Made by a program: the position numbers and the translations under genes. Below are positions 19,199 through 21,096 of a stretch of DNA of 26,548 nt, one piece after another (position 1 is the first letter of the stretch; the number at the start of each line of letters is the position of its first letter). The notes beneath the pieces are model-generated. The model was given only the letters and a program-made list of their open reading frames with translations. It was not told the DNA's origin and did not search any database. Location: contig CAYFHS010000040.1 in assembly GCA_964342815.1 (NCBI GenBank), positions 11,707 to 38,254 of the forward strand, in the 5' to 3' direction. This DNA is from an uncultured archaeon (GTDB taxonomy: Archaea > Thermoplasmatota > Penumbrarchaeia > JASLWR01).

Positions 19199-19516
19199 TC
19201 ATTCAACCATTCCTTCCATTTCTTTTTTCATTTTTTTCAATTTGGTATGATTACGAAGGAAAAAAATGATTGATATTACCACCCCAATCGGTAAAACAAT
19301 AACTTGTGGATTCGCTATCAAAAGCTCAATTTCCTCTTCAAAACCCATAAAAGTAAACATAGTAAAAACAACCAAAAATATTATCCACCCAAAACATCCA
19401 ATCCCTACGATAATCCAAACAGCCCTTCTTGATTTCACTTTCTCTATATTTGCGCTTATTTCTTTGTAACCATGTTCCACTTTTTTTGGTAGTTCCTTCA
19501 CAGATTGTTCTCTCAT
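19199..19516 (-). CDS. Small 2-TM hypothetical membrane protein, 105 aa
   Basis: ORF track; GAGGTGG RBS; two hydrophobic helices flanked by charged helices. Confidence 0.75.
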   Translation of the reverse strand: MREQSVKELPKKVEHGYKEISANIEKVKSRRAVWIIVGIGCFGWIIFLVVFTMFTFMGFEEEIELLIANPQVIVLPIGVVISIIFFLRNHTKLKKMKKEMEGMVE

Positions 19517-19719
19517 TCATCCACCACCTCTTTTCCTTCCATTCCCACCGCCCTCTTTTTCCTATTACCCCTCGACATAGGCCCCATCATAACGCTCCGC
19601 AGACCGCAACCGGGACACTTCAGCCGGTAGGGTTTCACATCGGAGGTTATTTTTCTATTTGCCTTGCATTTGGGACAGAGGATGTCGGTTTGGATTTCTG
19701 GTTTCTTTGGATGTAATTG
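19513..19719 (-). other. 68-codon in-frame extension beyond the TAA, encoding a CPKC...CPGCG Zn ribbon
   Basis: Manual translation QLHPKKPEIQTDILCPKCKANRKITSDVKPYRLKCPGCGLRSVMMG...VVDE*. Its TGA (19513-19515) overlaps the next ATG as ATGA. Confidence 0.75.
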
Positions 19720-21096
19720 TTATTCCAATTTCCCCTGCAGAGCAATATATTCATCCATCGTTATTTCCCCCCTTGCAAACCGATCAGTCAATTCTATCAA
19801 ACTATCATTCCCACCCTTCCCTTTGATCCCGCCTCTTTTTACTCTCTCTAATTCTGCTCCACATTTGCAGCAAAAGGTCTCATCTTCATCCAACCAGGTC
19901 CCACACCCAGAGCATTTATTTTCGTTTTCATCCGTTTCATCTTCAATTATTTTTACCTGGCTGTGACCCAGCTTCTCACGACGTGACGAGGTCTGCGTTT
20001 TCTTAAAACCTTTGCTCCCTGGAATTTCCCCCGGAAACTCCAATTTTGACTTACACATGTTACAGGTAACTTCGTCCGGGTCCAATGTAGTTATTACCTG
20101 AGGTAAACCTCCATACAATCCGCAACCCGTATATTTATCGTCAAATATGTAATGCACCCCTAGGACCATGGTTTCCATTTTCATATCATCATCGTATCCG
20201 CTGTAATCCCTTGGATATTCCTTAGGTTCCTTTTTCTTATCGAACCGATATTCCTTTCGGCGGGATCCCCTCCCCATCATAATAAAGGCCGCGCCAGCCA
20301 TTAGAATATGACCAATGCAGGTAATGACATCTCTTATTGGAACGAAATTTCCGGGTTCCAGGGACTCTTGGAAATCTTTCAATACCTCTTCGTCGTTCAA
20401 ATCCTTGTCACCGTACTCGGCTCGCAGGTCCTGCATGTACGAGTTGAAAACTATCACCGATATTACGCTCATTATGACGATGATAAAACCACCGAGAACG
20501 GCCATGGTTCTGGCAGACTTTTTCTCGGCCCAAAAACCAGGACCCCCTTCGGCAAGGGCTTGACTAACAGCGAAGAATATACTCGCCCACGCCAGGGTGG
20601 AGGTCCAACTAATAATTTCATCAAGTATTACACTGGTATCCTCCTCCACTTCGGCGGAGGTCATAATATCCCCCATCATCTGGAATGTTATGAGAATAGT
20701 GATGAAAAATACAAAGCACATGAATATCCCGCCGATAAGACCGCATATGGACCCTCTTTGCCTGCCCGCTCCAAGATTTCTTCTCCTGGAGAATATTATT
20801 ATGTTCCCGGCAACAACTAGAATCATTCCGACCAATGGGAGAAAACATAGGCAGTTGGATCCTGATCCGGTATCGTTACTGCTTTCTAATGCGCCACCTA
20901 TCAATGTGTAAAACCCTGTTAGCAGCGCTCCGCTACCTAATAACTTGTATCCGGTTTTTACCGTCTTCTTATCACCACGTCTCACACTCTTTTTATAGGG
21001 TCGTTCTCGGTCCTTCTCATTTCCAGCCCGAATACGGTCCTGCGGCCATCCACGATCTTCAAGTGCTGGGTACTTAAACCTATTTCGTTCTACCAT
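19720..21096 (-). CDS. Multi-pass membrane protein (about 6 TM) with Cys/His Zn motifs and a SHOCT-like segment; probably continues in frame to 19513
   Basis: GGAGTGA RBS; H-x8-CG...TCNMC; CSGC-x10-CCKC double Zn-ribbon type motif; SHOCT-like LTDRFARGEITMDEY. Confidence 0.88.
   Translation of the reverse strand: MVERNRFKYPALEDRGWPQDRIRAGNEKDRERPYKKSVRRGDKKTVKTGYKLLGSGALLTGFYTLIGGALESSNDTGSGSNCLCFLPLVGMILVVAGNIIIFSRRRNLGAGRQRGSICGLIGGIFMCFVFFITILITFQMMGDIMTSAEVEEDTSVILDEIISWTSTLAWASIFFAVSQALAEGGPGFWAEKKSARTMAVLGGFIIVIMSVISVIVFNSYMQDLRAEYGDKDLNDEEVLKDFQESLEPGNFVPIRDVITCIGHILMAGAAFIMMGRGSRRKEYRFDKKKEPKEYPRDYSGYDDDMKMETMVLGVHYIFDDKYTGCGLYGGLPQVITTLDPDEVTCNMCKSKLEFPGEIPGSKGFKKTQTSSRREKLGHSQVKIIEDETDENENKCSGCGTWLDEDETFCCKCGAELERVKRGGIKGKGGNDSLIELTDRFARGEITMDEYIALQGKLE

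Follow-up and report, generated by a model that had tools for sequence, protein, structure and literature searches.

Nonsense alleles and young pseudogenes are known in prokaryotic accessory genes. The locus described here resembles them in its single in-frame stop, the intact frame behind that stop, a second lesion in the same gene and the many such stops elsewhere in the genome; it differs in that no intact ortholog gives the ancestral codon, and in that the stop sits in a known leaky context. Interrupted archaeal genes have been discussed previously, and the archaeal readthrough shown so far is that of Sec and Pyl alone (PMC8211752). Those recoding systems (UGA for Sec, UAG for Pyl; PMC8211752, PMC12626013) share with our locus an in-frame stop inside an apparently longer archaeal frame, whereas the codon here is UAA, which neither system reads and which, as TAA, is an ordinary stop that ends 1038 of the 2903 genes called in this genome with our own gene caller. 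We found no report in the literature of context-driven archaeal readthrough without Sec or Pyl.

The leaky context is that of the type I (TMV) signal, UAG-CAR-YYA, in the classification of Beier and Grimm. This hexamer is reported to be active without any structure downstream of it and, in plants and yeast, to be able to act on each of the three stops (PMC13517186); in mammalian assays, UAA has proved the most faithful of the stops (PMC5829715). Our locus has CAA-UUA at +4 to +9, adenines before the stop and no downstream structure, as in the viral case; it departs from it in having UAA, an archaeal aRF1 with aEF1A, and a cellular, lineage-specific gene. Before the stop, the predicted protein resembles SHOCT domain proteins (PF09851; PMC3581485), some of which combine DZR and SHOCT: it has two short helices, a G-x-I-T-x-x-E-Y motif and a terminal position after a DZR-type ribbon. 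In contrast to that family, the tail of the 458-aa protein scores below the cut-off, is one residue shorter than any compared and has a second terminal module in frame behind it.

The window, by which we mean the whole 26,548-nucleotide stretch of DNA that was analysed, belongs to an uncultured marine archaeon with a genome of 4.35 Mb in 116 contigs (89% complete), whose aRF1 is 92% identical to that of the Thermoplasmatota genome ETNP2_MAG_1; marine metagenome assemblies of PRJEB4352 contain the gene. An earlier, sequence-only reading had described the string TTG GAA TAA CAA TTA CAT, followed by 68 open codons with a CPKC-x16-CPGC motif and a final TGA overlapping the next ATG as ATGA. All of this is present on the minus strand as described (Table 1). 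We consider it likely that a lineage-specific nonsense mutation gave rise to the TAA in an accessory gene, and that the resemblance of the stop to the plant-virus leaky-stop signal is probably due to chance.

Table 1. Features of the interrupted gene and its surroundings, in window positions
Feature	Positions	Strand	Basis
Next gene, 105-aa membrane protein without clear family, ATGA overlap	19199..19516	-	ORF call
68-codon in-frame extension plus TGA; final codons form the next gene's SD region (GAGGTG)	19513..19719	-	sequence
CxxC-x16-CxxC ribbon (CPKC-x16-CPGC), low-scoring member of a class-wide, mostly C-terminal family	19606..19677	-	pattern and profile
CAA-TTA, exact type I (CARYYA) readthrough hexamer	19714..19719	-	sequence; motif per PMC13517186
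TAA, the stop in question	19720..19722	-	sequence; run contigs; other assemblies
458-aa ORF as called (membrane domain, Cys/His modules, SHOCT-like tail)	19720..21096	-	ORF call
SHOCT-like two-helix motif, aa 432-458	19723..19803	-	PF09851, 15.8 bits against a cut-off of 27
DZR-type zinc ribbon, aa 395-412, under Pfam cut-offs	19861..19914	-	profile search
H-x9-C-x19-CxxC motif, aa 315-348, possible zinc site, homologs not found	20053..20154	-	sequence
Unnamed multi-pass membrane domain, aa 44-291	20224..20967	-	homologs at 23-46% identity
Probable relic of the family start site, GGTGAT + 3 nt + AAG	20965..20976	-	alignment; same in four runs
43-codon N-terminal stretch, absent from all homologs, not coding-like (hexamer score -2.5)	20968..21096	-	alignment, hexamer score

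The TAA is real DNA, and so is the AAG at the gene's start site described below. Contigs of four runs from three studies bridge the TAA with no other letter (two of the runs look like one data set filed twice, leaving about three samples), and four other assemblies, in each of which the identical 458-aa protein was called, are 100% identical across 2.8-9.4 kb, TAA included. The sequence-only reading had left room for a base-call error and proposed a look at 19720-19722 in reads; the run contigs hold TAA and no sense codon there, and together with the other assemblies they exclude that option. What could be said for a sequencing or assembly error is that the source was assembled from a metagenome with a low depth (about 3-7 across the runs), but given the identical TAA throughout we put the probability of such an error close to nil. 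Variation at the locus was zero among all sequences holding the junction, contigs being a form of data that also drops rare variants; the population would thus be near-clonal here, and the stop cannot be dated.

Adenines occupy -1 and -2 ahead of the TAA, and the codon is one substitution away from seven sense codons. By chance, CARYYA is expected at 1 in 850 sites after stops and at 1 in 1146 sites after codons one step from TAA. The earlier estimate of about 1 in 500 was therefore right in that the motif is rare per site, but the true rate is lower, and the estimate had omitted the number of sites at risk: genome-wide, four of the 2903 gene ends carry a stop followed by CARYYA where 3.4 are expected. 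This chance level supports the nonsense mutation. Only the present one of the four has a domain behind it. With 10-25 internal stops in a genome, the chance of such a match is 0.9-2.2% per genome, so that tens of cases would be expected across thousands of genomes. At natural stops, C at +4 is depleted (10% against ~17% further downstream), which holds for each of the three stops (8-12% against ~17%) and also when start/stop overlaps are left out. After natural TAA, CAA is the commonest C-starting triplet (11/726). One SHOCT gene in a relative (L080, G025:C2) ends in TAG-CAA-TTG, one base off type I, with 21 open codons behind; near-matches to the signal thus appear to be common. We found no stable RNA structure after or around the TAA (z -0.4 to +0.3), which is neutral because a type I signal needs none. 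The termination machinery showed no sign that UAA is reassigned or suppressed: TAA is not rare, the single aRF1 carries NIKS, YxCxxxF and GGQ (besides pelota), and neither a UUA-anticodon tRNA nor any other suppressor was seen among the 33 tRNAs called in this 89% complete genome.

Judged by its residues, the extension is a genuine C-terminal zinc ribbon module. It has the four Cys, the 16-residue spacer and the Pro five positions before the third Cys that mark a ribbon found across the class, in all 21 of the relatives' genomes searched and in 36 proteins of this genome. In 33-34 of these 36 it is C-terminal (within 6-9 residues of the end in 33), and the linker that follows the TAA is similar to the KKP linkers in the genome's other ribbon proteins, both of which argue that the ribbon once ended this protein and that the TAA interrupted it. 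Among the genome's ribbons, the present copy alone sits past a gene's stop and lacks a start of its own. As the sequence-only reading had noted, ATG, GTG and TTG are absent ahead of its first Cys, and the first in-frame ATG, at codon 44, lies past the Cys motifs; a GTG at codon 28 stands between the two Cys pairs and so could not start the whole ribbon. Despite keeping all Cys and the Pro, the copy has the sixth lowest profile score of 69 and departs from the family at conserved columns, with Arg where Ile or an aromatic residue mostly stands (0/68) and Ser for Gly (1/68), which again favours a nonsense mutation. As to purifying selection on the extension, intact Cys and frame stand on one side, the low score and the column changes on the other. 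The 29-residue tail past the ribbon (most have 6-9 residues there) might have signalled decay, but we dropped this argument, since a relative has a similar basic tail of 20 residues. Likewise, little weight was given to the ATGA overlap (extension TGA at 19515-19513) as proof that the extension is translated, because the extension's last stretch also serves as SD region for the next gene. Across the genome, at least 33 unrelated membrane or surface proteins, often very large ones, end in the CxxC-x16-CxxC ribbon, which has no clear Pfam family and may serve throughout the lineage as a cytoplasmic tag or interaction module.

In the 458-aa protein itself, the membrane domain is the only portion with homologs. 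The 14 homologs that we read (221-573 aa) have highly variable C-termini (a kinase, a DZR, or none), and none carries the CxxC-x16-CxxC ribbon. The H-x9-C-x19-CxxC region has three in-frame ATG codons before it and, from its sequence, may be a fused small zinc-finger gene. The look-alikes of the locus in the atlas were generic small zinc-finger clusters. Two purine-rich 29-nt stretches (19535-19563 and 19815-19843) are 72% alike and each follows a zinc ribbon, but their frames differ and the likeness is possibly chance. The tail before the TAA is SHOCT-like only, having missed the PF09851 cut-off (E 0.011). It runs 16 residues past its Gly, and all 25 SHOCTs compared in relatives are longer (17-21). 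Leu 453, 457 and 461 hold helical spacing over the TAA, and in a single-sequence structure model, used for the helix alone (pLDDT 56, low confidence), the helix continues through the stop position. A short tail with a helix pattern that crosses the TAA favours a nonsense mutation.

We also found a lesion at the other end of the gene. In a paralog and a same-genus homolog, the start has the form GGTGAT + 3 nt + ATG (GGT GAT ACN ATG), and the homologs' starting Met aligns with residue 44 of our protein. Here the same place reads GGT GAT AAG AAG, followed by the AAA ACC GGA TAC block common to paralog and homolog, and the AAG is unchanged in the contigs of four runs. The alignment indicates that the family start codon was probably lost by a change of ATG to AAG. 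Since GGTGAT has been kept in register between proteins only ~40% identical, the SD would have been in use until recently and the ATG lost recently. The called ORF begins at an ATG 43 codons 5' of this place, with the SD-like GGAGTGAT 6 nt 5' of it; on sequence grounds, this upstream ATG may compensate, so that the gene is still translated. A gene deprived of its family start as well as its last domain has the appearance of decay, and this second lesion in the same gene is a further reason to favour a nonsense mutation.

Relatives of the junction were not found in metagenome contigs, whether by protein or by a DNA pattern that placed no constraint on the stop, nor in genome contigs, nor among 5.8 billion proteins or 1.84 billion representatives. 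No RNA data set was listed as containing the locus, a result that carries no weight as to expression. In 36 other genomes of the class, we found no ribbon preceded by an in-frame TAA-CARYYA; the other 11 matches to the search pattern were each in the wrong frame, closed too soon or away from a gene end. The gene cluster is not at the syntenic place in a same-genus genome, and by these comparisons the gene is a mosaic specific to its lineage. Where synteny breaks off lies a short element (19075-19127) repeated elsewhere in the genome, with extra depth and loose ends; it matches contig C51 and the same-genus genome. Elsewhere in the window, a glucan phosphorylase gene (13173-14888, minus strand) separates two genes that are neighbours in the same-genus genome, so that it was either inserted here or lost there.

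At least nine further stops lie in frame within genes of this genome, none of them followed by CARYYA, and this background argues that the TAA is one more of the kind. Six are spanned by intact paralogs; four, one shared with those six, have open orthologs. In all four control stops tested against relatives the frame is open there: a TAA faces Lys AAA, a TGA faces Gly GGA, a TAG faces Phe/Tyr, and one is unaligned at the codon. Only paralog- or ortholog-spanned stops, as they stand in the assembly, were counted and three doubtful rows were left out; a whole-frame scan of coding scores was too noisy for counting internal stops. Single in-frame stops sit in several large surface-protein genes and in one small conserved gene (contigs C10, C6, C24, C18, C5, C31 and C2). 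All four other clear internal TAA codons (C11 near 41125, C1 near 326764 and two in a broken C1 gene copy) are followed by CTG, CCC, CTC and CCT; the present TAA also precedes a C, and C begins 16% of codons, but this pattern is small and post hoc, with two members from one dead cluster. Leaky TAA-C nonsense alleles might persist longer.

Could the stop instead be a selected signal? In that case CAA-TTA would slow aRF1 and a near-cognate tRNA would read the TAA in a few percent of cases, yielding SHOCT-ended and ribbon-ended isoforms. The exact hexamer and the adenines before it fit this idea, as do a stop that parts two modules each normally C-terminal, the domain found behind this one of the four CARYYA gene ends, and the +4 C depletion, by which context may matter to aRF1. 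However, the junction was found in no other lineage by the searches above, the motif does not recur above chance, UAA is the least leaky stop in mammalian assays, CAA after natural TAA is not avoided, the same gene lacks its family start codon, and aRF1 is single and canonical with no suppressor tRNA called. Setting the large likelihood ratio of the motif against a low prior, the missing conservation and the lost start, we regard selected readthrough as decidedly improbable, and to the same degree the notion of an archaeal cellular gene that uses a eukaryote-type CARYYA to pass UAA and so switches between SHOCT-ended and ribbon-ended forms of a membrane protein. The extension might also be a separate mini-gene, translated from a non-canonical ATC (codon 9 or 13) or by ribosomes that re-initiate past the TAA. 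A genome of the same family does have a stand-alone 81-aa gene (L037, G003:C131) made of a DZR ribbon, a poly-Glu linker and the same terminal ribbon, and our extension is chained to the next gene via ATGA; but the stand-alone relative has its own ATG and GGAGGT, whereas no standard start or SD precedes the first Cys here, and the ATA overlapping the TAA leads into a different frame, 22 codons long and free of Cys. We hold a mini-gene to be very improbable. A start at the ATAA overlap and a slippery-site bypass were rejected, as the frames reached do not encode the ribbon.

A different possibility is that a SHOCT-terminated module, naturally ending at the TAA, was recombined ahead of the 3' remnant of a ribbon gene, the frames matching by chance (1 in 3) and the ribbon being orphaned. 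SHOCT was terminal in 25/25 relatives' proteins examined, with the CxxC-x16-CxxC ribbon behind it in 0/25, and 89% of SHOCT domains lie within 50 aa of the C-terminus (PMC3581485); this near-constant position fits a natural end, and it is also the layout that readthrough would exploit. The variable C-termini of the family and the non-syntenic place of the cluster are in line with recombination as well. Against it stand the SHOCT-like tail, shorter than all 25 compared and with a helix pattern that runs past the stop, the coding-like linker that begins directly after the TAA, and a junction at which no repeat or composition step was seen. We take recombination to be unlikely, if still to be reckoned with.

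Of the options raised by the sequence-only reading, then, the nonsense mutation is favoured, while programmed readthrough is unsupported. In the course of events that we propose, the ancestral frame would have been a single ORF of membrane domain, zinc modules, SHOCT-like helices and terminal zinc ribbon. We infer that the ancestral codon was a sense codon and that termination is now efficient: aRF1 would terminate at the TAA, the product would end at residue 458, and the ribbon would be an untranslated remnant. With the family start probably gone, the gene would be under relaxed selection or a young pseudogene; CAA-TTA would be just its next two codons (Gln-Leu), and a low, unselected leak through TAA-C is possible. 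Several findings count against this nonsense mutation. The contig and protein searches returned no ortholog with a sense codon, the motif is exact (a per-site chance near 1 in 1100), and the stop lies near a module boundary. The extension has kept its frame, its Pro and all four Cys. Furthermore, SHOCT followed by the ribbon occurs in no intact protein examined, and with an SD-like sequence at its upstream ATG the gene is perhaps still translated.

On this best reading the locus matters little in itself, being one more premature stop in an accessory gene. It serves as a calibration case, in which an exact viral readthrough motif arises by chance in ~1-2% of such genomes. If readthrough were true, archaeal aRF1 would respond to the same downstream context as eRF1, and gene callers would be missing C-terminal isoforms in archaea.
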